This document shows positions 2,299 to 59,370 of a stretch of DNA of 64,000 nt, piece after piece. The notes beneath the pieces are model-generated. The model ran no database searches. It saw only the letters and a program-made list of their open reading frames with translations, and had not been told where the DNA came from. The number at the start of each line of letters is the position of its first letter. Positions within the stretch are counted from its first letter, which is position 1. Position numbers and translations under genes: made by a program. Where the stretch lies: positions 14,674 through 78,673 of the forward strand of contig CAVWHY010000002.1 of NCBI GenBank assembly GCA_963754955.1, given 5' to 3'. The stretch is from an uncultured Acidobacteriota bacterium. Its GTDB lineage: Bacteria > Acidobacteriota > Vicinamibacteria > Vicinamibacterales > CAVVIG01.

Positions 2299-3124
2299 AT
2301 GCCCATTCGCAAGTTCAATCCCACGTCGCCCGGGCGCCGGTTTCAGACCGGCCACGACTTCGACGAGATCACGACCTCGGAGCCGCACAAGCCGCTGGTC
2401 GAGACGCTCCATCAGTCGGGCGGGCGCAACAACCGCGGCAACCTCACGTCGTGGTGGCGCGGCGGCGGCCACAAGCGGATGTACCGCGTGATCGACTTCA
2501 AGCGGGACAAGCACGACATCCCGGCGAAGGTGTCGACCATCGAGTACGACCCGAACCGGTCCTCGCGCATCGCGCTCGTGACCTACGCGGACGGCGAGAA
2601 GCGCTACATCCTGCAGCCGAGCGGTCTGAAGGTGGGCGACACGATCGTGTCCGGCCAGAACGTGGACATCCTGCTCGGGCAACGCGCTGCCGCTGAAGAA
2701 CATCCCGCTCGGCACGCAGCTCCACAACGTCGAGCTGAAGCCCGGCAAGGGCGGGCAGATTGCGCGCAGCGCCGGATCGTCCGTGCAGCTGGTGGCCAAG
2801 GAAGGCCAGTACGCGTCGGTCAAGATGCCGTCGAGCGAGATTCGCAAGATCTTCAGCGAGTGCTACGCGACGATCGGCCAGGTCGGCAACATCGAGCACG
2901 AGAACGTCGCGATCGGCAAGGCCGGCCGCAGCCGGTGGATGGGCAAGCGCCCGCACGTCCGCGGCGTCGCCATGAACCCGGTCGACCATCCGCTGGGCGG
3001 CGGCGAAGGCAAGACGTCGGGCGGACGCCACCCCGTGTCGCCGTGGGGCCTGCCGACCAAGGGCTACAAGACGCGCAACCGCAAGACCACCGATCAATAC
3101 ATCGTCACGCGGAGACAGAAGTAA
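2299..3124 (+). CDS. rplB: 50S ribosomal protein L2, frame broken by one extra base near 2677-2680
   Basis: The N-terminus (ORF from 2299) and the C-terminus ..[24 protein letters not shown].. (ORF 2783-3124) are both L2. The frames join as ..VDILLG|[25 protein letters not shown]... Length 826 = 3n+1. Confidence 0.9.
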
Positions 3125-3467
3125 TGAGCCGCTCAACCAAGAAAGGTCCGTTCGTCGATACGCCGCTCCTCGAGAAGATCGAGGTGATGAACCGCGGATC
3201 CGAGCGGAAGGTCATCAAGACGTGGTCGCGCCGGTCCACGGTGATCCCCGAGATGGTGGGACACACGCTGGCCGTGCACAACGGCAAGAAGTTCATCCCC
3301 GTGTACGTGACCGAGAACATGGTCGGCCACAAGCTGGGCGAGTTCGCGCCGACGCGGCAGTTCAAGGGTCACACGACGAAGGTGGCGGAGCGGGCGGCCC
3401 AGGCCGCGGCGGCGCCTGGCGCGCCGGGCGGCGCGGCGGCGGCAAGCCGGCCGGCGCGTCGAGCTAG
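3124..3467 (+). CDS. rpsS: 30S ribosomal protein S19, 3' end uncertain (no in-frame stop as sequenced)
   Basis: [50 protein letters not shown] is S19. The ATG overlaps the rplB stop. The nearest plausible stop, TAG 3465-3467, is in another frame (length 3n+2), which implies an indel in the GC-rich tail at about 3400-3460. Confidence 0.8.
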
Positions 3468-3480
3468 GCGGAGAGCAGCG

Positions 3481-3898
3481 ATGATACAAGCGCAGGCAAC
3501 CTCTCGATACATCCGGACCTCGGCGCAGAAGGCCGGGCTCGTGCTCGATCTCATCCGCGGCAAGGACGTCAACCGCGCGCTGGCGACGCTCGAGTTCGCG
3601 CGCAAGTCGGTGGCGGAGGACATCGCGAAGCTGCTCCGGTCGGCGATTGCGAACGCGCAGCAGAAGGACGGCTTCAGCGGCGACGTGGACCGGCTGTTCG
3701 TGTCCGCGTGCTACGCGAACCAGGGGCCGTCGCAGAAGCGCGTGCGGCCGGCGCCGATGGGCCGGGCGTTTCGCGTCCTGAAGCGCACCGCGCACCTGAC
3801 CGTGCACGTCTCGGAGCGGCCGCAGAAGGCTGTGGCCGTGGCGGCGGGCGAAACGAAAAAGCGGGCGCAGAACCCCGAAGAAAGCTGCGAAGGAGTAA
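3481..3898 (+). CDS. rplV: 50S ribosomal protein L22, one extra base near the 3' end
   Basis: [39 protein letters not shown] is L22, with GGAG 9 nt upstream. TAA 3896-3898 is reached if one base is dropped, for example in the C-run 3873-3876, giving ..AQNPKKAAKE*. Length 3n+1. Confidence 0.82.
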
Positions 3899-3900
3899 CC

Positions 3901-4590
3901 GTGGGCCAGAAGGTTCATCCGTTCGGATTCCGGCTCGGCTTCAACAAGACGTGGCGGTCGCGCTGGTACTCCGACCGCGACTACGCGAAGCTGCTGCACG
4001 AGGACCTGGCGCTGCGGTCGACGCTGAAGAAGCGCTTCGCGCACGCCGGCGTCTCGAAGATCGAGACCGAGCGCGCCGCCAACAAGCTGAAGATCGACAT
4101 CTACACCTCGCGGCCCGGGATCATCATCGGCCGCAAGGGCACCGAAGTCGACAAGCTGAAGCAGGAAATCCAGAAGCGCACCAACCGCGAGGTGTTCATC
4201 AACATCCAGGAGATCCAGAAGCCGGAGCTCGATGCCCAGCTCATCTCCGAGTCGGTGGCGATGCAGCTCGAAAAGCGCGTGGCGTTCCGGCGCGCGATGC
4301 GCAAGGCGGTCGAGTCGGCGCTGCGGTTCGGCGCCCGCGGGATCAAGGTGCGCGTGTCGGGCCGGCTGAACGGCGCGGAAATCGCGCGGTCCGAGTGGTA
4401 CCTGCACGGCCAGCTGCCGCTGCAGACGCTGCGCGCGGACATCGACTACGGGTTCGCTGAAGCCAACACGACCTACGGCCAGATCGGCATCAAGGTGTGG
4501 CTGTACAAGGGCGAGCGGCTCGTGCCGCAACGCGGGCGTGAAGAAGAGTACCGAGAGCGGGCCCCACGCCGACCGGCGGCGCGGGCCTAG
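3901..4590 (+). CDS. rpsC: 30S ribosomal protein S3
   Basis: GTG start; [39 protein letters not shown] is S3 (KH domain). 230 codons, intact. Confidence 0.95.
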
Positions 4591-4718: not shown

Positions 4719-5145
4719 ATGTTGATGCCGAAGAAGGTCAAGTTCAGGAAACAGCAGCGCGGGCGCATGCGCGGCAAGGCGTGGCGCGGCGGCGACGTGT
4801 CGTTCGGCGACTACGGGCTGAAAGCGCTCGAGCCGTGCTGGCTGACCGACCGCCAGATCGAGGCGGCGCGCGTCGCGATGACGCGGTTCGTCGCGCGCGG
4901 CGGGAAGATCTGGGTGCGCGTGTTCCCCGACAAGCCGATCACGAAGAAGCCGCAGGAAACCCGCATGGGCAAGGGCAAGGGCGCCCCCGAGCAGTGGGTG
5001 GCCGTCGTGAAGCCGGGACGGGTGCTGTTCGAGATGGAAGGCGTGAGCGAGAAGGACGCGCGCGAAGCGATGAAGCTGGCGGCCGCGAAGCTGCCGATTC
5101 TCACGAAGTTCGCGACCCGCTTCTGCGCAGGAGAGAATCCAATGA
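4719..5145 (+). CDS. rplP: 50S ribosomal protein L16, one extra base near the 3' end
   Basis: [45 protein letters not shown] is L16. As sequenced it reads through into rpmC. TGA 5143-5145 is reached after removing one base at about 5117-5125. Length 3n+1. Confidence 0.85.
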
Positions 5146-5334: not shown

Positions 5335-5590
5335 ATGGCGACGAAATCCGAGAAAACCGGCGTGGTCGTGAGCAACAAGATGACGAAGAGCATCGTCGTC
5401 GCCGTGGAGTGGCAGGTGCGCCACGGGCTCTACGGGAAAACCGAGCGGCGGACGTCGAAGTTCATGGTCCACGACGAGGAAAATACCGCCAAAGTCGGTG
5501 ACATCGTCGAGATCGTCGAAACGCAGGCCGCTCAGCCGCAGCAAACGCTGGGCGCTCAAGCGCGTGGTGCGGCAGGCGGCGGAGGTCTAA
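5335..5590 (+). CDS. rpsQ: 30S ribosomal protein S17, one extra base about 5525
   Basis: [48 protein letters not shown], then after the shift [21 protein letters not shown]. Length 256 = 3n+1. Confidence 0.88.
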
Positions 5591-5592
5591 CC

Positions 5593-5965: not shown

Positions 5966-6298
5966 ATGTCCAGCTTAGCAACGCCGATTCGCAAGAACGA
6001 CAACGTGCTGGTGATTACCGGCAAGGATCGCGGCAAGCGCGGGCGCGTGCTGCGCGTGCTGCCCGACAAGAACCGGTTGATCATCGAGGGCGTGAACCTG
6101 ATCAAGCGCCACACGAAGCCGAACCCCGGCAAGAACGTCAAGGGCGGCATCGTCGAGCGCGAGGCATCGCTGCACGCGTCGAACGTGCAGCTGGTGTGCC
6201 CGGAGTGCGGAGCGCAGACGCGCGTCGGCCGCAAGATTCTCGGCGACGGCCGGAAGGTGCGTATCTGCCGCAAGTGCGAGGGAGTGGTGGACAAATGA
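5966..6298 (+). CDS. rplX: 50S ribosomal protein L24 (with C-terminal CxxC..CxxC zinc ribbon)
   Basis: ORF 5966-6298, [22 protein letters not shown] (KOW) plus CPECG..CRKCEG. Confidence 0.95.
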
Positions 6299-6838
6299 GC
6301 CGCCTGAAGGAGCGCTATCAGCAGGACGTCATCCCGGCCGCTGAAGAAGGAGTTCGGGTACACCAACGTCATGGCCGTCCCGAAGATCCAGAAAGTCGTC
6401 GTCAACATGGGCCTCGGCGAGGCGACGTCGAACGTGAAGATCATCGACACGGGCGCCGACGAGCTCGGACGAATCACGGGGCAGAAGCCGGTGACGCGCC
6501 GGTCGAAGAAGTCGATCGCGCAGTTCAAGGTCCGCAAGGGCCAGCCGGTCGGGACGATGGTCACGCTGCGCGGCGCGCGCATGTGGGAGTTCCTCGACCG
6601 CCTGATGAACATCGCGCTGCCGCGCGTGCGCGACTTCAAGGGCGTCTCGCCCAAGGGCTTCGACGGACGCGGCAATTACACGCTCGGCCTGCGCGACCAG
6701 CTGCTGTTCCCGGAGATCGACTACATGAAGGTCGACAAGGCGCGCGGCATGAACGTCTCGGTCGTCACCACGGCCAAGACGGACGAAGAGGCGAGGAAGC
6801 TGCTGCAGTTCATGGGCATGCCGTTCAGGCAGAACTGA
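6295..6838 (+). CDS. rplE: 50S ribosomal protein L5, one extra base about 6338
   Basis: [15 protein letters not shown], then after the shift [28 protein letters not shown].. (ORF 6371-6838). The ATG overlaps the rplX stop. Length 544 = 3n+1. Confidence 0.9.
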
Positions 6839-7634: not shown

Positions 7635-8175
7635 ATGTCACGTATAGGCAAAAAACCGATCACGATTCCGAAGGGCGTCACCGTCAAGGTCGCCGACGGC
7701 GCGGTCGAAGTGCAGGGCCCGAAGGGCAAGATGCGGCAGCCGTTTCCGGCCGGCATCAACTTCGAGCTCGCGGACGGCGCGCTGCACGGCGAAGCGGTCG
7801 ACCGCCGACCCGGAGCTCGCCAAGTACCACGGCCTGGCGCGCAGTCTGATCGCCAACGCGGTGCAGGGCGTCACCGAAGGCTTCAAGAAGGAGCTCGACA
7901 TCGTCGGCGTCGGCTACCGCGCGGAGCTAAAGGGCAAGCAGGTGATTTTCGCCCTGGGCTACTCGCACGCCGTCGTCTTCGACATTCCGACGGGTATCGA
8001 CGTCGCGATCGACAAGCAGACGCACATCACGGTGACGGGCGTCGATCGGCAGCTGGTCGGCCAGGTGGCGGCGAACATCCGGCGCCTGCGGGAGCCGGAT
8101 CCCTACAAGCAGAAGGGCGTTCGGTACACCGGCGAAGTGCTGAAGAAGAAGGCCGGCAAGACCGGGGCGAAATAG
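7635..8175 (+). CDS. rplF: 50S ribosomal protein L6, one extra base about 7785
   Basis: [19 protein letters not shown].., then ORF 7861-8175 ..[23 protein letters not shown]... Length 541 = 3n+1. Confidence 0.9.
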
Positions 8176-8177
8176 AC

Positions 8178-8552
8178 ATGAAGATTCATACGAAAGCCGA
8201 TCGCCGCGAGCGGATTCACCTCCGCCAGCGCAAGCGGATCACGGGAACGACGGAGCGGCCGCGCCTGAGCGTGTTCCGCAGCGTGTCGCACATCTACGCG
8301 CAGGTCATCGACGACCTGAGCGGCAAGACGCTGGCGTCGGCGTCGTCCACCGATCCGAAGCTGAAGGGCGCGTTCGAGAAGGACGTGCGCGGCGGCAACA
8401 TCAAGGGCGCCGAGGCGATCGGCAAAGCCATCGCCGAGCGATCGATCGACAAGGGCATCAAGCGCGTCGTCTTCGACCGCGGCGGGAACCTGTATCACGG
8501 GCGGATTCGCGCTGTCGCGGATGCCGCACGCAAAGCCGGTCTGGAGTTCTAA
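8178..8552 (+). CDS. rplR: 50S ribosomal protein L18
   Basis: [57 protein letters not shown] is L18. Confidence 0.95.
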
Positions 8553-9071
8553 ATGTTCAGTCGTGAACGCATCGATCCGTCGCAGCTCGACATCAAGGAC
8601 ACCGTCGTCTCGATCAACCGCGTGACCAAGGTTGTCAAGGGCGGCAAGAACCTGAGCTTCAGCGCCCTGGTCGTCGTCGGCGACGGACACGGCGTCGTCG
8701 GGTTCGGCATCGGCAAGGCGAAGGAAGTGCCCTCCGCCATCAAGAAGGGCATCGAGGCGGCGAAGAAGAACCTGATTCGCGTGCCGCTCAAGGGCACCAC
8801 CATCCCGCACCGCATCGTCGGCAAGTTCGGCGCGGGCGCGGTGCTGCTGAAGCCGGCGCCGGACGGCACGGGCATCATCGCGGGCGGCGCGGTCCGCGCC
8901 GTCGTCGAGGCCTGCGGGGTGACGAACATCCTGACGAAGTCGCTGGGATCGGCCAACCCCCACAACGTGGTGCGCGCGACGTTCACGGGGCTCAAATCGC
9001 TGCAGGATCCGCTGAGCATCGCGAGGCTCCGCGGCAAGGACCTCGATCAGCTGGTTCCGGCGAACGCATAG
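8553..9071 (+). CDS. rpsE: 30S ribosomal protein S5
   Basis: ORF 8553-9071, ..[39 protein letters not shown].. Confidence 0.97.
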
Positions 9072-9088
9072 GATTCGGAGATACAGAA

Positions 9089-9289
9089 GTGGCCAACGAA
9101 CGGACGGATAGCAAAGGCGGCATCGTCAAGGTGACGCTGGTGAGGAGCCCGACCGGCTTCGACCGCAAGCAGTCGACGACGGTCACGAGCCTGGGGCTGC
9201 GGCGCATTCGCCACACGGTCGAGTTGAAGGACACGCCGGCCGTGCGGGGCATGATTCACAAGGTCCGTCACCTGGTGACGGTGGAATAG
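9089..9289 (+). CDS. rpmD: 50S ribosomal protein L30
   Basis: GTG start; ..[38 protein letters not shown]. Confidence 0.93.
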
Positions 9290-9302
9290 TGATGGTGAAT
9301 GT

Positions 9303-9402
9303 GGTCATCTCATCATCTGGTCATCTCGTCATCGTCTCGATCAATTGAGACATTGGACAGTTGATCGACGATGACCAGATGACGAGATGACCACATGACC
9401 AG
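9303..9402 (+). repeat. Octamer-built hairpin element, copy 3
   Basis: ggtcatct catcatct ggtcatct cgtcatcg .. caattg agacattgga cagttg .. cgatgacc agatgacg agatgacc acatgacc ag. It ends 16 nt before the rplO ATG. Confidence 0.9.
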
Positions 9403-9418
9403 ATTCGAGAGAGCATTT

Positions 9419-9865
9419 ATGGATTTATCGAATCTCAAACCGCCGAAGGGCGCCAAGCACGTCAAGAAGCGCATCGGGCGCGGCCAGGGGTCGGGCAACG
9501 GCAAGACCGCCGGCCGCGGCCACAAGGGCGCGAAATCGAGGTCGGGTTACAAGTTCAAGCGCGGCTTCGAAGGCGGCCAGATGCCGCTGCACCGGCGCGT
9601 GCCGAAGCGCGGGTTTCACAATCCGACCCGCGTCGAGTACGACGTCGTCAACGTCGACACGCTCGCGGAGCGGTTCGAGGCCGGCACGGTCGTGACGCCG
9701 GAGCTGCTCCGCGAACACCGGCTGCTGCCGGGCGGCGGCCGCCCCCTGAAGGTGCTGGCCCGCGGCGACGTCAGCAAGGCGCTGACGATCCGCGCCCACA
9801 AGTTCAGCGGCAAGGCGGAGGAGAAGGTGAAGGCGGCGGGCGGAACGACGGAGCTGATCGCGTAG
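9419..9865 (+). CDS. rplO: 50S ribosomal protein L15
   Basis: MDLSNLKPPKGAKHVKKRIGRGQGSGNGKTAGRGHKG is L15. The track ORF starts at 9395 inside the repeat, so the ATG at 9419 is preferred. Confidence 0.92.
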   Translation: MDLSNLKPPKGAKHVKKRIGRGQGSGNGKTAGRGHKGAKSRSGYKFKRGFEGGQMPLHRRVPKRGFHNPTRVEYDVVNVDTLAERFEAGTVVTPELLREHRLLPGGGRPLKVLARGDVSKALTIRAHKFSGKAEEKVKAAGGTTELIA

Positions 9866-9896
9866 GTGGATTGATCGTCAAATCCATGGATCGCAT

Positions 9897-11288
9897 ATGG
9901 CCTTAGACAGCAGCCTCAAGAACATCTTCGCGGTGTCGGAGCTGCGCAACCGGGTGCTCTTCACCCTGGCGCTGCTCGGCGTGTTCCGCATCGGCGGGCG
10001 CATCGTCACGCCCGGCGTGGACATCCGCGCGCTCGAGGAATTCGCCCAGCAGCTCGGCAAGAACAGCATGTTCGGGCTGTACGACATGTTCACGGGCGGG
10101 AACCTCGCGAAGGTCACGATTTTCGCGCTGGGCATCATGCCCTACATCAGCTCGTCGATCATTCTCCAGCTGCTGACGGTCGTGTGGCCGTACCTGGAGA
10201 AGTTGTCGAAGGAAGGCGAGCTGGGCCGCCGCAAGATCACGCAGTACACGCGTTACGGGACGATCGTGCTGTGCGTCGTGCAGTCGCTCGGGATCGCGTT
10301 CTTCCTCGAGCGCAACACGACGCCGAGCGGCTTTCACCTGGTCACGAACGCGGGCTGGGGATTCCGGCTGTTGACGATCCTGACGCTGTCGACGGGGACG
10401 GCGTTCGTCATGTGGCTGGGCGAGCAGATTACCGAGCGCGGCATCGGCAACGGCATGTCGCTCATCATCTTCGCGGGCATCGTCGTCAACTTCCCGCGGG
10501 CGGTGATGACGACGTTCGAGCAGATGCGGACCGGCCAGATCGGGCTGATCCGGATCCTGTTCCTGATGGTGCTCATGGCGGTGGTGGTCGCGGCCATCAT
10601 CTTCGTCGAGCGCGGACACCGGCGAGTCACCGTGCAGTACGCGAAGCGCGTTGTGGGCCGCCGGATGTACGGCGGGTCGAGCACGCACATCCCGCTCAAG
10701 GTCAACACGGGCGGCGTCATCCCGGTCATCTTCGCGTCGTCGATCCTGGCGTTTCCGGCCACGATCGCGAGCGCGTTCAAGGGGCCGTGGGTCGACACTG
10801 TCGTTCAGCAGCTGAACGTGGGGATGCCGCTGCACAACCTGCTGTACGTGGCCGGCATCATCTTCTTCGCCTACTTCTACACGGCGATCATCTTCAACCC
10901 GGACGACGTCGCCGAGAACATGCGCAAGTACGGCGGGTTCATCCCCGGCATCCGGCCGGGCAAGCGGACCGCGGAGTACATCGACACGATCCTGGCGCGG
11001 ATCACGCTGGCGGGCGCGCTCTACCTGGCGGTCATCGCGATTCTGCCGCAGTGGCTGATGAGCGGCTTCCGGGTGGCGCCGATTCCCGTCATCGGGGACT
11101 GGCTCGATTCCGTGCTGCCGCGGTTCATCACCGAAGGCATGAACATCACGTTCTTCTTCGGCGGCACGTCGCTGCTCATCGTGGTCGGCGTGGCGATGGA
11201 CACGGTGCAGCAGGTGGAATCGCAGCTCATCATGCGGCACTACGACGGCTTCATGAAGAAGACGCGGCTTCGTGGCCGGCGCGGGTAG
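9897..11288 (+). CDS. secY: Preprotein translocase subunit SecY
   Basis: 463 aa, multi-TM, ..IFALGIMPYISSSIILQLL..GRRKI.QYTRY.. Confidence 0.97.
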   Translation: MALDSSLKNIFAVSELRNRVLFTLALLGVFRIGGRIVTPGVDIRALEEFAQQLGKNSMFGLYDMFTGGNLAKVTIFALGIMPYISSSIILQLLTVVWPYLEKLSKEGELGRRKITQYTRYGTIVLCVVQSLGIAFFLERNTTPSGFHLVTNAGWGFRLLTILTLSTGTAFVMWLGEQITERGIGNGMSLIIFAGIVVNFPRAVMTTFEQMRTGQIGLIRILFLMVLMAVVVAAIIFVERGHRRVTVQYAKRVVGRRMYGGSSTHIPLKVNTGGVIPVIFASSILAFPATIASAFKGPWVDTVVQQLNVGMPLHNLLYVAGIIFFAYFYTAIIFNPDDVAENMRKYGGFIPGIRPGKRTAEYIDTILARITLAGALYLAVIAILPQWLMSGFRVAPIPVIGDWLDSVLPRFITEGMNITFFFGGTSLLIVVGVAMDTVQQVESQLIMRHYDGFMKKTRLRGRRG

Positions 11289-11291
11289 CGT

Positions 11292-11972
11292 GTGGCAGTC
11301 AACGTCATCATGCTCGGCCCCCCGGGGGCGGGAAAGGGCACGCAGGCCGAACGTGTGGCGCGCAGCCGCGGCATTCCCAGGATTTCGACCGGCGACATCC
11401 TGCGCGACGCGGTCCATCACCACACGGCCATGGGGGAGAGCGTGCAGGCGGTCATGGACCGCGGCGAGCTGGTCAGCGACGACGTGATGATCGGCATCGT
11501 CACCGAGCGGCTGGGGCGCCCGGACGTGGCGCCGGGGTTCGTGCTCGACGGCTTTCCGCGCACCGTGGCGCAGGCCGCGGCGCTCGATCGGCTGATGAAC
11601 GGACGCGATCCGCTCATCGTGCTGGATATCGTCGTGCCGGAGTCGGAGCTGGCCCGTCGTCTCGGCATGCGGCTGATTTGCGAGGACTGCGGCACCAACG
11701 CGGACGGACGGGAAGTCGTGCCGGGGCGCTGCGGCAAGTGCAGTGGACGGCTGACGCAGCGTGCCGACGACAGCGATGGCGTGGTGCTCGAGCGGTTCAA
11801 GATTTACCAGCGGGCGACAAAGCCGCTGGTCGAGTTCTACCGCGATCGATCGACGTTCCGGTCGATCAACGGCGCACAGCCGGCGGACCTGGTGACGGCC
11901 GAACTGGCCGCGGCAATCGAAGCCGTCGGCAACGGGCGCCTGAATGCCGCCAGTGGAGGGAACACGCGGTGA
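11292..11972 (+). CDS. adk: Adenylate kinase (4-Cys zinc lid)
   Basis: GTG start; MLGPPGAGKGTQAE..ISTGDILR..GFVLDGFPRT; lid CEDCG..CGKCSG. Confidence 0.95.
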   Translation: MAVNVIMLGPPGAGKGTQAERVARSRGIPRISTGDILRDAVHHHTAMGESVQAVMDRGELVSDDVMIGIVTERLGRPDVAPGFVLDGFPRTVAQAAALDRLMNGRDPLIVLDIVVPESELARRLGMRLICEDCGTNADGREVVPGRCGKCSGRLTQRADDSDGVVLERFKIYQRATKPLVEFYRDRSTFRSINGAQPADLVTAELAAAIEAVGNGRLNAASGGNTR

Positions 11973-12742
11973 TCGTCTGCCGGTCGGCCGCCGAGCTCGA
12001 ACGGATGCGGGAGGCCGGGCGTCTGGTCGGCGAAGTGCTGACCGAGCTGACCGCCGCGGTGGCGCCGGGAGTGAGCACCGCCGAGCTGGACGAGATGGCG
12101 GAGCGGCGCATCCGCCAGGCGGGGGCGACGCCGGCGTTCAAGGGGTATCACGGGTATCCGGCGACCATTTGCGCGTCGATCAACGACGAGGTGATTCACG
12201 GGATCCCGTCGGGCCGCCGGGTGCTGGCCGAGGGCGACATCATCTCGATCGACGTCGGCGCCGCGCTCGACGGGTACTACGGCGACAGCGCGGTGACGCT
12301 GCCCGTGGGCCACGTCTCGGAGCAGGCCGCGACGCTGCTGCGGGTGACGGACGAGTCGCTGTACAAGGCGATCGAGCAGGCACGGCCGGGACGCCGCGTA
12401 TCCGACATCGGCCACGCCGTACAGCGGCACGTCGAGGCGTTCGGGTTTTCGGTCGTGCGCGAGTTCGTCGGGCACGGCATCGGCGTGCGGATGCACGAGG
12501 AGCCGCAGGTGCCCAATTACGGCGAGCCGGGTCACGGGCCGCGGCTGGCCGAGGGCATGGTGCTCGCGATCGAGCCCATGGTGAACGCCGGGAAGCCGGC
12601 GGTGAAGGTGCTGGCGGACGGGTGGACGGCGGTGACGCGCGATACGAGCCTGTCCGCGCACTTCGAGCACACGGTCGCGGTGACGTCGGGAGAGCCGTGG
12701 ATACTGACGGCACGGGAAGTCCCGGTCAGCGCGCGCCGATAG
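11969..12742 (+). CDS. map: Methionine aminopeptidase type I
   Basis: The GTG overlaps the adk stop. ..KGYHGYPATICASINDEVIHGIP..DIISIDVGA..GHGIG..HEEPQVPNY..EPM..HFEHTV. Confidence 0.94.
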   Translation: MIVCRSAAELERMREAGRLVGEVLTELTAAVAPGVSTAELDEMAERRIRQAGATPAFKGYHGYPATICASINDEVIHGIPSGRRVLAEGDIISIDVGAALDGYYGDSAVTLPVGHVSEQAATLLRVTDESLYKAIEQARPGRRVSDIGHAVQRHVEAFGFSVVREFVGHGIGVRMHEEPQVPNYGEPGHGPRLAEGMVLAIEPMVNAGKPAVKVLADGWTAVTRDTSLSAHFEHTVAVTSGEPWILTAREVPVSARR

Positions 12743-12930
12743 CGGGCGTGGTCGTCGAGCAGCTGCCGAGCGCGCTGTACCGCGTGAGGCTGGACGAGGG
12801 AACGCAGGTGCTGGCGCACGTCGCTGATCGGATCGACCGCAATTTCGTGCGCGTGATCGTCGGCGACCGGGTGCAGGTGGAATTGTCGCCGGTGGACGGC
12901 GGACGCGGGCGTATCGTGAGCCGGCTGTAG
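12697..12930 (+). CDS. infA: Translation initiation factor IF-1 (start codon uncertain)
   Basis: ..[61 protein letters not shown] is the IF-1 S1/OB fold. There is no ATG. Candidate GTGs are 12697 (overlapping map) and 12748 (which would truncate the N-terminus). Confidence 0.75.
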
Positions 12931-12973
12931 TTGTCGTGCAGGCCGTCGGGCCTGCCTGAAGATTCGAGGAAGC

Positions 12974-13087
12974 ATGAAGGTTCGAGCGTCAGTCAAACGG
13001 ATTTGCGACAAGTGCAAGATCGTCCGCCGCGCGGGCGTGGTGCGGGTGATCTGCCCGAACCAGAAACACAAGCAGCGGCAGGGCTAG
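12974..13087 (+). CDS. rpmJ: 50S ribosomal protein L36
   Basis: [37 protein letters not shown]. Read by hand; too short for the ORF track. Confidence 0.95.
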
Positions 13088-13088
13088 C

Positions 13089-13130
13089 GGGACAAGGGCA
13101 GAGCGCAAAGGGCAAAGGGCAAAGAGCATA
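13089..13130 (+). repeat. Single-arm heptamer array (GGGCAAA-type x6) running into the rpsM start codon
   Basis: gggacaa gggcaga gcgcaaa gggcaaa gggcaaa gagcata|tg. Confidence 0.8.
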
Positions 13131-13504: not shown

Positions 13505-13520
13505 GAAGGTCATCTGATTT

Positions 13521-47809: not shown

Positions 47810-47825
47810 TGGAGCGCGCGTTGCA
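47810..47825 (+). promoter_or_regulatory. Possible sigma54 promoter upstream of the minor-pilin genes
   Basis: TGGAGC-gcgcg-TTGCA has correct GG/GC spacing but lies only 14 nt before ATG 47839, which would give a near-leaderless mRNA. Weak call. Confidence 0.3.
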
Positions 47826-47838
47826 CTTCCTGCCGGAC

Positions 47839-48259: not shown

Positions 48260-49438
48260 GGCCGGCCTGGCGGAGCCAGGCGGGGTTCTCCCTGCTCGAG
48301 GCGCTCATCGCCACGACGATTACCGTGGCGGTCACGGCCGGCGTGTTCGCCGTCGTGGGTTCCTCGCAGGGAATCGCTGACACGCAGCCTGAGTTTGCCG
48401 ACATGCAGCAGCGGCTGCCGTGCGGCGTCGACGTGCTGCGGCACGATCTCCTCATGGCCGGCGCGGGCGCGTACACGGGTCGCGCGAGCGGAGGCCTCGT
48501 GGCGCAGTTCGCACCCGTCCTGCCGTTTCGACGCGGCGCCTCGGCCACGTACGACGATGGAGCGGGGGTCGTTCAACGCAAGTGCGGTCACGATTCTCTA
48601 CGTCCCGTCGACTGCCTCGCAGACGACGATCCGTTTGCCATTGACGGACCCGTCCCGGGCCGATCTCGATTCGGGGCCGGGCTGTCCGCTAGCCGACGCG
48701 GTCTGCGGTTTCCGGCCCGGCGCCGCCGCGGCCGTTTACGACGGCACGGGGGCATTCGACGTGTTCGCGGTGATCAGTGCGGACGCGGCCGGTGCGCTCG
48801 GGCTTCAACAGATGCAGCGCGGAGGAGGAGCGAAGCTATATGCCACCGGCGCGAAGATCGTGGAGGTCGTCAGGCATTCGTACTTCCTCGATGCGCCTGG
48901 CCGCCAGTTGATGCGCTACGACGGCCTCGCGTCCGCAAACGTTGTCCTGGAGAACGTCGTGGGACTGGATTTCGAATATTACGCGGACCCTGCGCCTCCG
49001 GCGTTGGCACACCCGGGCGTTGACCAATCGGTCAGCTACGGGCCTGCGCCACCTGCCCCGCACGTCAGCCAGGCGCCGTGGCCGCCAGGCGAGAACTGCG
49101 CCTGGCGAATGGTCGGTGGAGAGCAGGCGCCCCGCCTGGCGCTGCTCGGTCCGTCCGGGGAGGGCCTTGTCAGATTGACGGCCGCGGAACTCACCGATGG
49201 CCCGTGGTGTCCCGATGCCGCCAGCGACAACCGGTACGATGCCGACCTGTTTCGGATCCGCACTGTTCGTGTCGCGATTCGGCTGCAGACGGGCAACGCG
49301 TGGCTGCGTGCCTCGCTGGCGAGCGGGCGTGGGGCGCTGTTCGCGAACCCCGGCACGGCGAGGAATGCGGCGCGCATGGTCCCCGATCAGTCCATCCGGT
49401 TTGATGTCACCCCGCGGAACATGAATCTGGGCAGGTGA
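48256..49438 (+). CDS. Minor pilin, PilW-like, one extra base about 48565
   Basis: MRPAWRSQAG|FSLLEALIATTITVAV..; C-terminal ..LFRIRTVRVAIRLQTGN... The ATG overlaps the upstream stop. Length 1183 = 3n+1. Confidence 0.72.
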
Positions 49439-50890: not shown

Positions 50891-52300
50891 GCCCACGCCC
50901 GCGAGCGGCCGCTCCTCCAATTCTGCTGGTTGAGGACAAAGACTCGCTGCGAACGATGCTCCGCCTCGCACTCGAGGCGCAGGGCCACTCGGTCATCGAG
51001 GCGCGCGACCAGCCGGAAGCCGTGGCCGCCCTGGAGAGCTCGCGGCCCGGCGTCGTGCTCTCCGATCTCCGGCTGCCGAACGGCGATGGGTTCGGCGTTC
51101 TCCGCGCCGCCAAGGAACTCGATCCCGAGATGCCCGTCATCGTCATGACGGCGTTCGGCAGCATCCAGGACGCGGTCTCGGCGATGCGCGAAGGCGCATT
51201 GGACTTCCTCGCCAAGCCGGTCGATCCCGATCATCTGCTGCTGATGGTCGAACGCGCGCTCGCGCAGCGGCGCCTGGCGACCGAGAACATCCTGCTGCGC
51301 GAGGAGCTCGCCGCGCGGCGCGGCGCGCCCGCAAATCATCGGAGAAGATCCCGGGCTGCAGCAGGTCACGATCGCGCTGCAGCGCGCCGCCGGCACCGAT
51401 ACGACGGTGCTGCTCGAGGGCGAGAGCGGCACCGGCAAGGAGCTGTTCGCGCGCGCGCTCCACATGCTCAGCCCGCGCGCCGACGGCCCGTTCGTCGCGA
51501 TCAACTGCGCGGCGATCCCGGAGAACCTGCTCGAAACCGAGCTCTTCGGCTACGAGAAGGGCGCGTTCACCGGCGCCGGCGCGCCGCAAGCCCGGCAAGT
51601 TCGAGCTCGCGCACCGGGGCACGCTGTTCCTCGACGAGATCGGCGAGCTTCCGCTGGCGCTGCAGGCGAAGATCCTGCGCGCGCTCGAGGAGAAACGGTT
51701 CGAGCGAGTCGGCGGAACCGTCCAGCTGCAGGTGGACGTGCGCGTCGTCGCGGCCACCAACCGCAACCTGAAAGCGGCCGTCGCCGCGCGCAGTTCCGCG
51801 AGGACCTGTTCTTCCGGCTGTCGGTGTTCCCGATCACGATCCCGCCGCTGCGCGATCGCCCCGACGATATCGCGATGCTGGCGACGCACTTCATCGAGCG
51901 TTTCAGCCGCGACCAGAACAAGAAGCCGCTGATGCTGGCGCCTTCCGCGATCGAGGCCATGGCCGCGTACCCCTGGCCCGGCAACGTGCGCGAACTCCAG
52001 AACTGCATCGAGCGGGCGGTCATTCTGACGGAGGGCGATACGATTCACGCGCGCCACTTGAACCTGTCGTTCAGGGACGCGGCGCCCGTCGCTGACGCGA
52101 GCCCGTGGTCGCAGATCGACTTGTCCGGAACGCTTGCCGGCGCCACGCAGCGCGTGGTCGCCGAGGTCGAGCGGCGCAAGATCGAGCAGGCGCTCAAGGA
52201 CGCCGGTGGCAACCGCGCCAGGGCCGCGGACGTCCTCCAGGTCGGATTCAAGGCCTTCACCGCAAAGCTTCGGGAATACGGACTCGACGCTACTTCTTGA
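50887..52300 (+). pseudogene. Sigma54-dependent response regulator (NtrC family), three shifts
   Basis: REC ([16 protein letters not shown]), AAA+ ([29 protein letters not shown]), HTH (..[20 protein letters not shown]). Shifts at about 51330, 51590 and 51790. Confidence 0.8.
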
Positions 52301-53379
52301 AGCCGAGCCGGAGCAGGGCCGCCTTGATCTCCTTCTCCGTCACATCGCTGACGATCGACGTGCCGCCGATGCCGGTCGGCAGGACGAAATGCAGCCGTCC
52401 CGCGACGACCTTCTTGTCGTGCCGCATGGCCTCGAGCATCCTGGCGCTCGAGAGGTCCGCGATTGGCGGGAGGGGACCGAGCCGGGTAATGAGGCCGGCC
52501 AGCGCCTCGCGATCGGCCGCCGGCATGACGGTGCGCCGCGCGGCGATCTCGGCGGCGACGAGCATGCCGTAGGCGACCGCCTCTCCGTGCCTGAACCGCT
52601 TGTATTTCGTCACCGCCTCGAGGGCGTGGCCCGCGGTGTGGCCGAAATTGAGAATCCGGCGGAGGCCGGCCTCCTTCTCGTCCGCGGCGACGACTCTCGC
52701 CTTGATCCGGCACGATTCGGAGATGATCGCGGTGAGCGCGGCCGGCTCGCGATCGAAGATCGAGTTTGAGGTCGCGGCCGATCCGCTCGAACAGCGCCCG
52801 GGCTCGACGTCACGCCGTACTTCACCACCTCGTAGAGGCCTGCCCGGAACTCGCGCCTCGGACAGCGTGCCCAGCACCGACGGATCGACGATCACGCCGT
52901 GCGGCTGATAGAACGATCCGATGAGATTCTTGCCGAGCGGGATGATTGACGCCGACCTTGCCGCCGACGGCGCTGTCCACCTGCGCGAGCAGTGTCGTCG
53001 GGATGTGGACCAGCGGGAGGCCGCGCAGATAGGTGGAGGCTGCGAACCCGGCCATGTCGCCGATGACGCCGCCGCCGAACGTGACGAGGGTCGAGCCGCG
53101 ATCCGCCTCGGCCTTCACCAGCGCGTCGTAGACGCGGGCGACCGTCGCGAGCTGTTTGAACCGTTCGCCGTCGGGGATGAGAATCGGTTCCACGCCGTGC
53201 GTGCCTCTCGCCACCCGTGCGCCGTGGAGCCGCCACACCGTCGGACTGGACACCACGAACCGTCGGGCCGGAACCTTCAGCTCGTCGAGCAGCCGCCCGA
53301 CGCTGTCGAGGGCGCCGTCCTCGATCGTGATCGCGTACGCGCGAGAGGGAGTGGGAACGTCGATGCGGACAGGGGGCAT
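52290..53379 (-). pseudogene. aroB: 3-dehydroquinate synthase, about four +1 shifts
   Basis: ..VTFGGGVIGDMAGFAASTYLRGLPLVHIPTTLLAQVDSAVGGKVGVNHP / ..IVDPSVLGTLS / VKYGVTSSP / ..LNFGHTAGHALEA..RHGEAVAYGM... Length 3n+1. Confidence 0.82.
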
Positions 53380-53406
53380 GAAGACCGGATGGTAGGATAA
53401 CACCGC

Positions 53407-55046
53407 GTGCATCTCTCCCCGGATTTCATCGTCATCGGCAGCGGCATCGCCGGGCTGCGGGCGGCGATTGCGCTCGCGCCCGTCGGCCGCGTCCTGATTC
53501 TGACCAAGGCCGAACCGACCGAGAGCAATACCGGCTACGCGCAGGGCGGCATCGCCGTCGCGCTCGGCGACGACGACAGCCCCGCGCTCCACGCGGCGGA
53601 CACGGTGAAGGCCGGCGACGCGCTCTGCGACGAAGAGGCCGTGCGGGTGCTGGTCGAGCAGGGACCGCCGCTACGTCACGGAGCTCGTCGAGTGGGGCAC
53701 GCGCTTCGACCGCGACGCCGAGCGGGCGCCTGTCGCGAGGACGGGAAGCCGCCCACAGCGTCCGGCGCGTGCTGCACGCAGGCGACACGACGGGACGGGA
53801 GATCGCGCCGCGTCCTGTGGCGTCGTGTCAGCGCCCTGCCGACGGTCGAAACAGCGAACCACGCGCTGGTGACCGGAGCTGCTCGTCGAGGACGGGCGCG
53901 TGGCCGGCGTCAGGTTCTTCGATCAGCTCGGGTTTCCGCGGGACGCGCGGGCGCGCGCCACGCTGCTGGCGACCGGCGGGGCCGGACACGTCTTCAAGGA
54001 AACCACGAATCCGCCCGTGGCGACCGGCGACGGCGTGGCGCTCGCGTTCCACGCCGGGGCCCGCGTCGCCGATCTCGAGTTCGTCCAGTTTCATCCCACC
54101 GCGCTGAATGTCCGCGGCGCTCCGCGGTTCCTGATTTCAGAAGCGCTGCGCGGCGACGGCGCCCGGCTGCTCAACGGCCGGGGCGACGCGTTCATGGGCG
54201 GCTATCATCCCGACGGCGATCTCGCGCCGCGCGACGTCGTCGCCCGGAGCATCGTTCGCGAGATGGAGCGGACCGGCGGGCCTGTGTTCCTCTCGCTGTC
54301 GCATCTCGATCCCGACTACGTCGTCCATCGCTTCCCGACGATTGCCGACATGTGCCGCCAGATCAATCTCGACCTGGCGACGCGATCCGATTCCCGTCGG
54401 ACCCGCGGCGCACTACATCATGGGAGGCGTCGAAACGGACCACTGGGGTCGGACCTCGATTCCGGGCCTGTTCGCCGCCGGCGAGGTGGCCTGCACGGGC
54501 GTTCACGGCGCCAATCGCCTGGCGAGCAACTCGCTGCTCGAAGGACTCGTGTTCGGCGCGCGCGCAGCGACGGCGATGCAGCAGGCTGACGGTGGCCAGT
54601 GGTCAGTGGCCGGTGATCAGTGGGTGCCGGCGCCACCGATCACTGATCACCGATCACCGATCACCGATGACGGATCACCGATCGCTGCCAACCGGCGTTC
54701 GTCGAGCGACCACCGTTCGCTGACGACCAGCGAAGTCCGCGACCTGATGTGGAAGTCGGTCGGCCTGTTCCGGACGGGCGAGGGTCTGCGCGATGCCGGC
54801 GCGAAACTCGAAGCCGCGTACCGCGCACATCGTCGCGCGCTCGACGACGCGCGCGCTGACGATGCGGATGCCTGGAAGCAATTCAACCTCGTGACCGTGG
54901 CGCGACTGATCGCGCGCGCCGCGCTGCGTCGGCAGGAGAGCCGCGGCGCCCACTACCGGCAGGATTTTCCGGAGAGGGACGATGTACACTGGAAAATCCA
55001 CCTGGTAGATCACATCGACGCATATGGCGAAAAACGACAAGACTGA
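53407..55046 (+). pseudogene. nadB: L-aspartate oxidase, about five +1 shifts, plus an in-frame repeat insertion
   Basis: FIVIGSGIAGLRAA..YAQGGIA.. / ..LLATGGAG.VF..TTNP..ATGDGVALA..AGA...DLEFVQFHPT.. / ..[60 protein letters not shown]. Confidence 0.85.
54590..54687 (+). repeat. Heptamer-periodic hairpin (CAGTGRY x5, loop CCGGCG, TCACCGA x7) inside the nadB coding sequence
   Basis: cggtggc cagtggt cagtggc cggtgat cagtggg tg / ccggcg / ccaccga tcactga tcaccga tcaccga tcaccga tgacgga tcaccga tcgctg. Translated as ..[32 protein letters not shown].. Confidence 0.85.
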
Positions 55047-56505: not shown

Positions 56506-56519
56506 GAATCAGATATGGT

Positions 56520-56570
56520 GCGGGGCTTCAGCCCCGCCGTGTCCGGCAGCCCTGAAGGCCTGCACTACTT
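56520..56570 (+). repeat. REP-like twin hairpin, family B copy 2 (between convergent proS and the HEAT gene)
   Basis: gcggggc-ttca-gccccgc, then GTCCGGCAGCCCTGAAGGCCTGCACTACTT. The minus-strand gene's stop codon (56565-56567) lies inside the repeat. Confidence 0.75.
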
Positions 56571-57579
56571 GCGCTGCGTCGGGAGCGCGCCCCAACGCTT
56601 CTCGATTTTCTTAATCACCCCGTGGCGCCGCGTGAGGCCTTCGCGTGCCACGATGGCCTGGAACGTGTCAGCGAGATGCTGGCGCCACCACGTGTCCTCG
56701 GCGCGCTCGTGCGCGGCGGCAATCGCTTCCAGGCACGATGCATCGCCCGCAATCGAAAGCGCGGCCAGAAATTCGACAGGCAGGGGCGTTGATGCGGCTT
56801 CGAGCGCTTCTCGCAGGTCGTATAGGCCGACCCGGCTGCGAGCGCTTTGCCAGGGCGATGTGCGCGGTTCCCCGGGCCCGTGTCCACTCGCCGCGGGCGG
56901 CCGCCGGCGCCGCGGCTTCCCGCTCGCGAAGGCGTTCGATGATGCGATGGAGGGTCGGCAATGGCGCCGTGGTTCCCGCTGCCACAAGCAGCCGCCGCAC
57001 CGTTTCCGGCTGATCGGGAAGCCCCGCCTCGGCCGCTTCACGCAGTTGATCCCCGGGCGGCGCCTCTGCCCGCCGACTGGCTGGACGACCTGACCCACCG
57101 ATACGCTCCCGGATCGCGGCGCTCGGGTCTGCCGCGAGGGTTTCCCACAGGGGCTTCAGCGTCGCCGCTTTGAGATCGCTGACGGCCGAGATCGCGGCCA
57201 GCCGCACCGATTCTGGGCGCGCGCGGTCGAGTGCAATTGCGGTCAGCCGGTCGAGTATCGCTGGATCGCGCCGGCCCTTGAGGAACACCTGCGCGAGGGC
57301 CACGGCCGCTGCCGCGACGCCGGCGTCCGCGTCCACCGCCGCCTGTAGCGCCACGTCCAGCGCCCGCTCGTCTGCGAGGGCCTCGAGGGCCCTGATGGCC
57401 GCCAGACGGGCGGTGACGCCGTTGTCGATGCGACCAACGATGGCCACCAGGCTCTCCACGGCGCGGGGACCGATCACGGTCAGCCGGGCAATTGCGGCTT
57501 CGCGGGTGACCGCGCTTGGAGACGCCAGATCGGCCGTCAGCACGTCAATCGAGGCTGCGGACGACTTCCTGATGGGCAC
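56565..57579 (-). CDS. HEAT-repeat protein, one extra base about 56870
   Basis: Ala/Leu-rich helical repeats ..REAAIARLTVIGPRAVESLVAIV..RLAAIRALEALADERALD... The C-terminus continues in ORF 56565-57098. Length 1015 = 3n+1. Confidence 0.65.
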
Positions 57580-57656
57580 GCCTGATCAAAACACAAACGG
57601 CCAGCCTGTGCTCGTGCACAGGCCGGCCGTTGGGTGAGAACGAGAGGATCGACGAG

Positions 57657-59370
57657 CTACTGAACGCTTACGGTGAGCGCGGCGCGGCGGTTCAACCGGC
57701 GCGTCTCCTCGCGCGAGTTGTCGTACTTCGGAGCTTCCTCACCGTAGCTGCGCGTCTGCATCCGGGCTGCCGGAACGCCTCGCGAGATGAGGTAGTCGCG
57801 CACGCTCGCCGCGCGGCGGTCGCCGAGCGCGAGGTTGTACTCCGCCGTGCCGATGCTGCAGGTGTGGCCTTCGATGACGATGTTACGGCCCGGGTTCGCC
57901 TGGAGCTTCGTGACCGCGTCGTCGAGGAGCCGAAGCGCCTCTGGACGCAGCGTCGAGCGGTCGAAGTCGAAGTAGACGTCGTCGAAGGTCAGCTGCGCGA
58001 CCGGCGCCGGCCGGTTGACCTGGATGTTGACCGTATCAGACGCGGTCTTGTTGTCGGTCGGGCACGTGACCGTCACGGTGACCGGAACGGCGCCTTCCTG
58101 GTTCGGGGCGGTGAACACCGTCTGGCGCGCGGTCGGGTTCGCGAACGTGCCGCTCGGCGCCGTCCAGCGGTATGTGACGGCGCAATTGATCGAGCTCGTC
58201 GCGACCGCAGTCACCGTCGAGGTCCGTCCGACTTCGACCGTCGTCGGCTCGGCCTGGGCGCGCACCGAGAGGTTGTGAGCCGGAGGCGGAGCCGGAGCCG
58301 GTGCCGGCGTCGGCGTGGGCGGCGGTGGTGGCGGCGGCACGTACTTCCGGACACCGGGGTGGTATCCGATCCGGACCTGCCAGTCCCAGTAGTCGCCGAA
58401 CGGGAAGTCGTCCGATTCGGCGCGCCCTGTCGCGCGCTCCTGCGTGGGCACGTTCCAGCTCAGGCCGACGCCGACGAAGAATCCCTTGGGCGCCTGGTAC
58501 GTCGCGCCAACGGTCGCGCGTGTGATGTTCTCCGTGTTCACGGTGAAGAGCGGCCGCGTTCCGTCGAAACCCGGCGGGAAGCCGGCGGCCGGACCCGTAT
58601 AGCTGGCGGTGCTGCTGGAGTTGGCGATGCCGTTCAGTTCGGCCGTGACGCGCAACGGCTGCCGCGACGGGAAGCCGGCGCCGACGCCCCACCGGAACGC
58701 GCCGCCGGGAATGTCGAAGTCGTCGGGCTTGCCGCGGAACTCGTAGCCGGCATAACCGGACACTTCGGCTTTCGCCAGTTCCTTGCTTGCGATGAAGTCG
58801 ACGAGGAAGTCGGCTTTTCCGGTGCCGATGCCGTCGTCGGAATTGGCCGTCGGCAGCTTCACCATGAACTTGACCGCCAGCGCAGCCGGTTTCGGCGTCG
58901 CCTGCGACCAGAAGTTGACCTTGGCGCCCAGGAAGACGTCGCCGAAATTATCGCCGGTCCACGTGGTGTGGACGCGGGGATACCGATCGACGAACCCGCC
59001 GTATGTCGGATCGGCGACAGAACAGCGGCCGGACGTCGCGATCGATGCGCGTGTCGAACAGCACCGATCCGAAGATTTCGGCGCGTCCCTTGATGCCGTA
59101 CGCGAACGTGCCGGAGAAGTCGCCGATGTTCGTGTAGCCCTGAACATAGTTCGTGCCCCGGCGGTAGCCGCTGACCGACCATTTGCCCGCGGGAAGTACC
59201 TCGGCTGTAGGCACGAACCACAGGCCGGTATCGCCGTAGAAGGTCGTCGTCGCCGGGCGTGTGTTATCTGTAGTTGTTGAGCTTGTCTGGCTGGTCTGTG
59301 CGCCGGCTGTCAGGGCCGTAAGCACGCAGAACACGGCAGCGAGACTCAGCGAACGGAACGTTGTCGTCAT
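57657..59370 (-). CDS. OmpA-family outer membrane protein (beta-barrel, Pro-rich linker, Ig/PKD-like domain, OmpA_C), one extra base about 59030
   Basis: Signal peptide MTTTFRSLSLAAVFCVLTALTAGAQ; PPPPPPPTPTPAPAPAPPP linker; C-terminal ..FDFDRSTLRPEA...LD......NP...I.IEGHTCSIGTAEYNLALGDRRA..V. Length 1714 = 3n+1. Confidence 0.82.

Follow-up and report, generated by a model that had tools for sequence, protein, structure and literature searches.

The window analysed here, a 64,000-nt stretch of a metagenome contig from an uncultured member of the Vicinamibacterales, holds roughly 60 genes, about 25 of which are broken by insertions or deletions. Eight of the broken genes encode ribosomal proteins. 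This raises the question of whether the frame breaks belong to the organism or to its assembled sequence. We conclude, with a probability of about 96%, that they are residual, uncorrected, insertion-biased consensus errors in the contig and that the organism itself has intact copies of these genes.

Between positions 2299 and 59373 we identified 46 single-base insertions and four single-base deletions. Insertions make up 92% of the events, a strong departure from a 1:1 ratio (P = 4e-10, binomial test). A preliminary description of this DNA had counted about 50 disruptions, almost all of them +1, and had named eight ribosomal protein genes among those disrupted; both statements hold. The three deletions that it had inferred (in the rpsS tail, at 43326, which it placed at about 43323, and at 51790) were recovered and a fourth was added at 50249. 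All thirteen genes that it had listed as carrying one extra base do carry one, and each site has now been located (Table 1). New in the present analysis are the events in the Yip1 gene (four), the VKOR gene (two) and aroB (four), as well as the strong clustering of the indels, which are concentrated at 2.6–7.8 kb, 21.2–26.6 kb and 40.2–54.4 kb.

Frame changes were sought by Viterbi segmentation on codon position. With a high switch penalty this missed short frame excursions (the rpsS tail, the end of rplV and Yip1); a lower penalty recovered the three excursions but added false positives. Candidates at 38786–38860, 42003–42225 and 22902–22985 were discarded because no indel is seen at these places in the Illumina contigs L086 and L088 or in full-length profile matches. 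For the first of two clean stretches gap statistics were computed, and any candidate event in it is backed by at most one or two references. The second yields full-length family matches, and L086 is 99.2% identical to the window and gap-free over 37912–39513.

Table 1. Frame disruptions and clean stretches in the window (positions count from the first nucleotide of the window).
Feature	Position	Strand	Observation
Artificial 763-aa ORF	2299..4590	+	L2 N-terminus, out-of-frame L2 sequence, S19, L22 and S3 fused in one frame
rplB	2299..3124	+	extra T at 2675, CTGC[T]CGGG; supported by 16-17/17 reference proteins
rpsS	3124..3467	+	net -1 in Gly/Ala-rich C-terminal tail, ~3385-3445
rplV	3481..3898	+	one extra base ~3856-3868; true C-terminus ...KKAAKE* in +1 frame
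rplP	4719..5145	+	extra T at 5124
rpmC	5142..5333	+	extra base ~5271-5275
rpsQ	5335..5592	+	extra A at 5525
rplE	6295..6838	+	extra C/G at 6338-6340
rplF	7635..8175	+	extra base at 7785-7790
Clean stretch 1	7800..21190 (13.4 kb)		rplR to rpoA, rplQ, EF-G-like gene, others; no frame disruption
MacB/FtsX-type permease 1	20085..21400	-	extra base at 21193
MacB/FtsX-type permease 2	21395..22652	-	extra base at 21795
Yip1-domain membrane protein	24084..24800	-	four +1 steps: ~24555, 24237, 24212, 24159
TraF_2-like outer-membrane protein	26153..27095	+	one +1 step at ~26631
Clean stretch 2	26640..40210 (13.6 kb)		pilB, pilT, pilC, pilS, pilR, pilins, two NHL-repeat genes
MmgE/PrpD-family gene	40050..41515	+	six extra bases: 40215, 40404, 40520, 40835, 40898, 41314
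VKOR-thioredoxin fusion gene	41623..42850	+	two extra bases: 42616, 42806
ABC transporter ATPase	42900..43844	+	missing base 43326, extra base ~43750
Conserved 322-aa protein	44640..45607	+	two extra bases: 45218, ~45284
pilD prepilin peptidase	45602..46387	+	extra C at 45624
Sensor histidine kinase	46388..47690	+	four extra bases: 46706, 47109, 47300, 47600
Two minor-pilin genes	47710..49438	+	one extra base each: 48197, 48570
Single missing base	50249		A present in L083, L081, L082
Sigma-54 response regulator	50920..52300	+	extra bases 51328, 51583; missing base 51790
aroB	52293..53400	-	four extra bases: 52763, 52796, 52863, 52939
nadB	53400..55043	+	five extra bases: 53671, 53723, 53806, 53875, 54382
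HEAT-repeat-like gene	56560..57600	-	extra base at 56838-56839
OmpA-family gene	57660..59330	-	extra G at 59020
Spacer just downstream of OmpA-family gene	59373		further extra G

The consequences for gene calling are seen at the start of the ribosomal protein genes. Here three stop codons are lost or circumvented through the insertions in rplB and rplV and the deletion in rpsS, and this creates the 763-aa ORF. The ORF had already been described as artificial, correctly so: the C-terminus of L2 is found in the +1 frame (2630–3121). The true stop of rpsS is a TAG at 3465 in a different frame. The cyclic +1 stepping through frames that had been described for the MmgE/PrpD and nadB genes was likewise recovered, as six and five +1 steps respectively.

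When the inferred bases were deleted or added, nine of ten corrected genes gave single-stretch, end-to-end domain matches, and the corrected proteins contain no internal stops. These nine are all of the genes with a good Pfam model; examples of the restored matches are FAD_binding_2 (1–414 of 414), Sigma54_activat (1–167 of 168) and MmgE_PrpD_N (2–241 of 244). The corrected Yip1 protein matches positions 2–171 of 173 in one stretch; its events are backed by frame analysis and this profile match only, with no close reference, and their positions come from the frame analysis. The tenth gene, TraF_2-like, gives a weak partial model match, and its event was placed by frame analysis and profile match only; a relative carries a 311-aa gene at this place.

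The number of genes affected, some with four to six hits, might suggest that the extra bases are real mutations in a decaying genome and the genes pseudogenes. We consider this highly improbable. A genome whose coding sequence is otherwise undamaged and highly conserved cannot have lost the function of eight essential ribosomal protein genes, as the preliminary description had argued of essential single-copy genes in general. Frame breaks aside, the proteins are 80–98% identical to intact orthologues and, once corrected, free of internal stops. In real decay deletions would be no rarer than insertions, and substitutions would create stop codons as well, whereas the counts here are four deletions and 46 insertions. 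Pseudogene-rich decaying genomes, such as those of Mycobacterium leprae and recently host-restricted symbionts, do resemble the window in their many frameshifted genes. However, the ribosomal protein genes of such genomes stay undamaged, their decay includes deletions, stop codons and gene loss, and their lesions are common to all isolates; none of these traits holds here. The indels in the window disregard gene essentiality, strand and coding status, as an assembly or consensus artefact would: both strands carry them, and ribosomal genes, aroB, nadB and the spacer sites 59373 and 62303 are affected alike. With a 5-nt and 4-nt pair at 50572–50592 added to the two sites just named, the spacers hold at least three insertions.

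The window's checkable extra bases are found in none of the comparison contigs. These comprise L083, which is from the same species (97.3% nucleotide identity), L081, L082, L168–L170, the Illumina-type JGI contigs L084, L088, L166 and L167 and, over the ribosomal genes, 17 loci from MAGs with short-read names that belong to the Vicinamibacterales, an order of soil Acidobacteriota. The 19-kb comparison set was aligned with MAFFT in fast mode. Between 45 and 59.3 kb, the base is absent from L083, L081, L082 and L084 at 21 window-private single-base insertion columns, one of which (45912) is not an error. The apparent insertion at 45912 arises from a 3-nt deletion in L083 combined with an error in L081, and PilD aligns shift-free from 45623 onward. 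At one further site, 53806, an extra base is present in L083 too, but it is not the one in the window. As independent evidence, neither the five nadB bases nor the bases at 56838, 59020 and 59373 occur in the JGI contigs L166 and L167, and L088, which is 91% identical at the nucleotide level over the MmgE/PrpD gene, lacks all six of its extra bases and encodes an intact protein of 501 aa. Because the indels are absent from other same-species and related assemblies, we regard them as assembly errors and not as biology. Pseudogene lesions would be common to the species, and L083 lacks the bases.

Three of the comparison contigs, L083, L081 and L168, have Flye-style or similar names and an indel load that suggest long-read assemblies, and each has indels of its own elsewhere: L083 has 19 insertions and 16 deletions, L081 about 11 insertions and L168 many indels. 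Error density in the window is uncorrelated with that in L083 (rho -0.04), and a region-specific systematic error is therefore ruled out. The private bases, the restored frames, the sibling contigs with indels of their own and the lack of a recoding signal all support the uncorrected, insertion-biased consensus error proposed in the preliminary description.

A nearly uniform +1 direction is also what would be expected of a single dedicated mechanism, in which real extra bases are bypassed by programmed +1 ribosomal frameshifting or corrected in the transcript. We consider this extremely improbable. The shift sites have no motif or slippery sequence in common and carry no stop codon, their contexts are heterogeneous, and the zero frame of rplB remains open for 1.9 kb beyond its shift site. 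The long A or T runs expected for transcriptional slippage are lacking; among 35 base-resolved insertions, none lies in a run of two or more A or T. The shift sites are not conserved even within the species, the base being absent from orthologues and from L083. Additionally, four events run the opposite way, and the spacer insertions lie where decoding does not apply. Bacterial prfB, which encodes release factor 2, is similar in having one extra base relative to a continuous protein and a shift in the +1 direction. However, prfB is one gene, in which an in-frame UGA comes after a conserved slippery CUU, with an upstream Shine-Dalgarno-like stimulator and conservation across species, whereas the 46 sites in the window are not conserved, share no motif and carry no stop.

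Pervasive frameshifting is known in Euplotes ciliates, and a genome-wide +1 correction, by the ribosome or at the transcript level, would be its bacterial counterpart. That the bases are truly in the DNA of this strain and are corrected in this way is extremely improbable, and we extend the same judgement to a milder version in which a DNA modification in this lineage misleads the basecaller. The latter idea derives from a G/C-after-complement signature and an avoidance of homopolymers, both seen in the window and in L083.

The inserted base touches an identical base in 8 of the 35 resolved insertions (18±3 expected) and is unlike both neighbours in 27, and the longest run involved is three bases. 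Typically a G or C follows its complement, so that G becomes GC or C becomes CG, and the inserted bases are 77% G+C. The homopolymer runs expected of Nanopore-type error are thus not the usual site. The preliminary description had placed several events in short homopolymers, which is mostly wrong: the event at about 51330 does lie within a run of C, but the two cited sites that could be resolved against a reference disagree with it. The GGG run at 2677 is conserved, the inserted base being the T at 2675, and at about 21190 a C has been inserted in front of GGG. A GATC-linked motif, suggested by two sites with GATCG plus the insertion, does not extend to other sites. Deliberate or simulated corruption is unlikely given the 77% G+C of the inserts, the homopolymer avoidance, the clustering and the same signature in sibling public contigs.

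Both the insertion bias and the homopolymer avoidance would be accounted for if the artefact came not from low depth but from a consensus over closely related strains, with both alleles of a position written out and an extra base created. At several sites in the ribosomal genes, the added base and the one next to it do resemble two alleles of a position that varies among relatives (CCG/TCG at 2675, TTC/TTT at 5124, CGG/AGG at 5525 and GCC/GCG at 6338), and related strains co-occur, contigs 91–99% identical to the window being present in several soil samples. We nevertheless consider this origin unlikely, though far from negligible. Many sites at 45–59 kb have no matching polymorphism in L083 or L081, the near-equal insertions and deletions of L083 are not what the mechanism predicts, and strain diversity would have to vanish locally in the clean 13-kb stretches.

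Under our preferred reading, the consensus of this contig from the Vicinamibacterales (Acidobacteriota subgroup 6) would never have been fully corrected, and each leftover indel would shift the frame of whichever gene contains it. Such errors would be stochastic and private to one assembly. The three clusters are probably few-read or unpolished stretches, with low local depth as the probable cause of the clustering. Most likely the sequence stems from a metagenome assembly of the Microflora Danica type, made with Flye and Medaka at low depth from Nanopore reads only. In GTDB the nearest relatives are Nanopore MAGs of the MFD set, whose contigs bear Flye names, and the sibling contigs belong to ENA analyses ERZ25039490, ERZ25039492 and ERZ25039585. 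The project behind the sibling contigs used Flye --nano-hq with one Medaka round and no short-read polishing (PMC12313526), and the same group states that polishing is required for bins of less than 40-fold depth (PMC9262707). Against this reading, the homopolymer avoidance and the 92% share of insertions are not the classic Nanopore signature, and in same-species L083 insertions and deletions are in rough balance.

Residual Nanopore or PacBio consensus indels, a problem gauged by the IDEEL test, yield fragmented and fused gene calls as seen here. The window resembles such error in its single-base indels at about 1 per kb, in the truncated and fused ORFs within otherwise conserved genes, in being private to one assembly and in its removal by reference to accurate sequence. 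Residual indels of this kind are worse at low depth (PMC9262707, PMC12313526). Classic long-read error, however, consists of homopolymer deletions and insertions, whereas the errors in the window avoid homopolymers, are overwhelmingly insertions, follow the G/C-after-complement pattern and fall in three clusters instead of being evenly spread. Homopolymer-aware polishing would not repair errors with this homopolymer avoidance, insertion bias and clustering; they call for frameshift-aware annotation or for polishing with short reads.

Left as it stands, the sequence would cause about 25 of the roughly 60 genes in the window to be mis-annotated as truncated, fused or pseudogenes. Public protein collections already contain such products, in the form of L16-L29 fusion proteins from other long contigs. 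Since the errors strike marker genes such as those for ribosomal proteins, they can distort phylogenomics and completeness estimates. For the organism itself the frame breaks would have no biological significance, as its genes are intact.

The reading-frame disruptions between positions 2299 and 59373, affecting about 25 genes, are confirmed as an observation and are an assembly artefact rather than a biological feature. We counted 46 insertions and 4 deletions in this range, in agreement with the preliminary description of about 50 disruptions, almost all of them +1 insertions. The uncorrected, insertion-biased consensus error proposed there is supported by extra bases that are private to the window (found in one sequence only, relative to the comparison contigs), by damage in sibling contigs, and by the essential single-copy genes among those disrupted.

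The window has a G+C content of 66%. Besides its ribosomal protein cluster it carries a cluster of type IV pilus genes and a range of housekeeping genes. SecY, which is intact, is at best 86% identical to MAG proteins of uncultured Vicinamibacterales or Acidobacteriota subgroup 6, and many of these MAGs are Nanopore ones of the 'MFD' series whose contigs are named in Flye style. Relatives covering other parts of the window were found by searching with the intact ProS, which has a 100% identical counterpart on a 124,707-bp contig in NCBI and ENA; two further contigs, L086 and L088, came from scanning metagenomes with an NHL-repeat protein. Judged by nucleotide identity (97.3%), contig L083 and the window represent one species.

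Features of the window and contigs compared with it
Feature	Position in window	Strand	Remarks
S10/spc/alpha ribosomal protein cluster	about 0.2-16 kb		
rplB extra base	2674-2675		many references in frameshift alignment
hairpin	4600-4706		spacer between rpsC and rplP
rplP extra base	5124		many references in frameshift alignment
rpmC extra base	about 5274		many references in frameshift alignment
rpsQ extra base	5524-5525		many references in frameshift alignment
rplE extra base	6338-6340		many references in frameshift alignment
hairpin	7078-7173		spacer between rpsN and rpsH
rplF extra base	7785-7790		many references in frameshift alignment
hairpin	9298-9405		spacer between rpmD and rplO
MacB/FtsX-type permease extra base	about 21193	minus	many references in frameshift alignment
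second MacB/FtsX-type permease extra base	about 21795	minus	many references in frameshift alignment
L088 (JGI)	37.4-42.4 kb		91% identical
L086 (JGI Ga0207644_10193128)	37912-39513		99.2% identical, gap-free
L083 (ENA ERZ25039585 contig_41030)	45012-59303		97.3% nucleotide identity
L081 (ERZ25039490)			91% identical
L082 (ERZ25039492)			87% identical; genes intact
L084, L166, L167 (JGI)			about 90% identical; genes intact

The single extra bases claimed earlier are supported by many references when the window is aligned to the proteins of its relatives with a purpose-written protein-to-DNA aligner that permits frameshifts, the queries being ORFs from 17 MAG loci named in the manner of short-read assemblers. 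In a DNA alignment of 26 sequences, each of these multi-reference sites is a column in which only the window has a base. The extra base in rplB, previously assigned to the GGG at 2677, is the T at 2675; the GGG is conserved. The 763-aa ORF at 2299-4590 that had been described as artificial is present, and NCBIfam models place L2 positions 1-132, S19, L22 and S3 in its single frame and L2 positions 125-274 in the +1 frame (2630-3121). Three-frame reading recovers the end of S19 (...KPAGASS and a stop) in the -1 frame, corresponding to one deletion, and the end of L22 (...KKAAKE and a stop) in the +1 frame, corresponding to one insertion. The ORF is fused because the S19-tail deletion is joined by the additional insertion in the L22 tail. 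With these two tails, the alignments yield the eight disrupted ribosomal protein genes originally claimed. The C-terminal extension of S19 (window 3390-3465) is Gly/Ala/Pro-rich and variable in this clade, with lengths far apart among relatives, and because of this variability the rpsS-tail deletion cannot be placed to the base.

Further downstream, comparison with L088 puts the number of extra bases in the MmgE/PrpD gene at exactly six. Proteins from the comparison locus L085 indicate two extra bases in the VKOR gene, and a missing base at 43326 and an extra base at about 43750 in the ABC ATPase gene. Frame analysis gives four +1 shifts inside 400 nt of the Yip1 gene and one shift in the TraF_2-like gene. 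L088 carries an additional 526-aa gene (L088 2697-4277), flanked by the DsbA-like gene (39405-40052 in the window) and the MmgE/PrpD gene. It is absent from the window, where the junction is clean (40047-40052) and stop and start codons overlap as ATGA at 40050. This looks like a real difference in gene content between close relatives.

From 45 to 64 kb, in an alignment of five sequences, 23 single-base insertions and 2 single-base deletions are private to the window. One of the insertion columns, 45912, is not an error. The private sites fall in genes encoding a histidine kinase (four), the minor pilins (one per gene), a sigma-54 regulator (two insertions and one deletion), AroB (four), NadB (five), a HEAT-like protein (one) and an OmpA-like protein (one). 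The sites in nadB and at 56838, 59020 and 59373 are independently confirmed by L166 and L167. In the same alignment 19 insertions and 16 deletions are private to L083 and about 11 insertions to L081, and private indels are almost absent from the Illumina-type contigs.

Several other differences were observed in this region. Position 53806 is the only site with an added base in both the window (C) and L083 (G) compared with L081, L084, L082 and L167. Its context is GAGATCG, and the window insertion at 52763 likewise follows GATCG; a pair of cases does not suffice to define a motif. The window and L083 have a longer version of a short in-frame repeat in the NadB linker (window 54630-54710; CCGATCA-like DNA, PITD-like protein) than do L081, L084, L082 and L167; this looks like natural repeat-length variation rather than a frame error. 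Private insertions of 5 nt and 4 nt in an A-rich non-coding spacer (50572-50595), and a private single A in non-coding sequence at 62303, beyond the range described previously, may be errors or real differences.

We corrected the genes by removing each inferred extra base and inserting an N for each missing one. Internal stops disappeared from 12 of 14 corrected models, the Yip1 and pilD models being rebuilt separately. Nine of the ten corrected genes that were scanned match Pfam end to end in a single stretch (Yip1, PilD, MmgE/PrpD, NadB, AroB, the regulator, the ABC ATPase and both permeases).

At all sites that could be checked, neither the same-species contig nor any other comparison contig has the extra bases of the window. 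Similar damage occurs at other positions in L083, L081 and L168, public ENA contigs of related soil Acidobacteria with names and indel loads that suggest long-read assemblies; in L168, L2 is split, S19 is fused to L22, and L16 to L29. Private indels in these three contigs also split PilD, NadB and AroB and fragment SMC. The error densities of the window and L083 in 1-kb bins are uncorrelated (rho -0.04), and the errors are therefore stochastic and unlinked to particular sequence. Nothing like a recoding signal occurs in the 35 base-resolved contexts, which have no common motif, no stop codon on the site and no A/T runs. Spacers, in which decoding plays no part, contain at least three of the insertion events.

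Although several events had been described as sitting in homopolymers, the errors as a whole are not homopolymer errors. The inserted base differs from both neighbours in 27 of the 35 base-resolved insertions and touches an identical base in only 8, compared with 18±3 expected under random placement. The inserted bases are mostly C (15) and G (12), with 5 A and 3 T, and 20 of the 35 follow their complement (G to GC, C to CG), as do 11 of 19 insertions in L083. The errors are also clustered, which was not noticed previously. Two stretches, 7.8-21.2 kb (13.4 kb) and 26.6-40.2 kb (13.6 kb), are free of errors, the dispersion index in 2-kb bins is 2.37 (P about 1e-4), and none of 20,000 simulations produced two gaps that long. 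One clean stretch is backed independently by the gap-free 99.2% match to the Illumina contig L086.

From the relatives and sibling contigs we infer that the source is probably the long-read project Microflora Danica or a pipeline like it. Microflora Danica assembled Nanopore-only data with Flye 2.9.2 (--meta --nano-hq), followed by a single Medaka 1.8.0 round, and reported that coding density was reduced in MAGs of lower coverage (PMC12313526). The same group found that short-read polishing was still needed for bins below about 40-fold depth (PMC9262707). Alternatively, both alleles of a strain polymorphism may have entered the consensus, an artefact of another kind that would be consistent with some of the ribosomal-gene sites; however, it leaves unexplained the many deletions in L083, where insertions and deletions are about equal, contrary to the window. 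With uncorrected consensus error, the clustering could arise if some stretches had very few reads or were missed by polishing.

Three spacers of the ribosomal protein operon each contain a hairpin of about 100 nt. In each hairpin arm the 8-mer GGTCATCT is repeated about four times in tandem, opposite its complement, and the loop region carries CAATTGAG. The 13-mer CATCTGGTCATCT (at most 2 mismatches) has 21 matches compared with 0.9 expected, all inside these spacers. RNA folding energies are -56, -42 and -62 kcal/mol (z-scores -9.1, -4.5 and -6.7), and among 165 loci only L027 shares an exact 15-mer. The hairpins could represent RNA structures within the operon or else a small repeat element.

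Five L16 proteins of 204-205 aa with both L16 and L29 domains (P0268, P0283, P0322, P0339 and P0341) were found, all from NCBI or ENA, on contigs between 7 and 565 kb long. They are probably similar frameshift fusions at the rplP/rpmC junction that have been carried into databases; the fusion was checked for P0283, from L168. The base-level error list is a useful product, and the avoidance of homopolymers and the clustering are useful observations on the errors. A further useful result is the warning that public protein collections already hold fused or truncated products of this kind.
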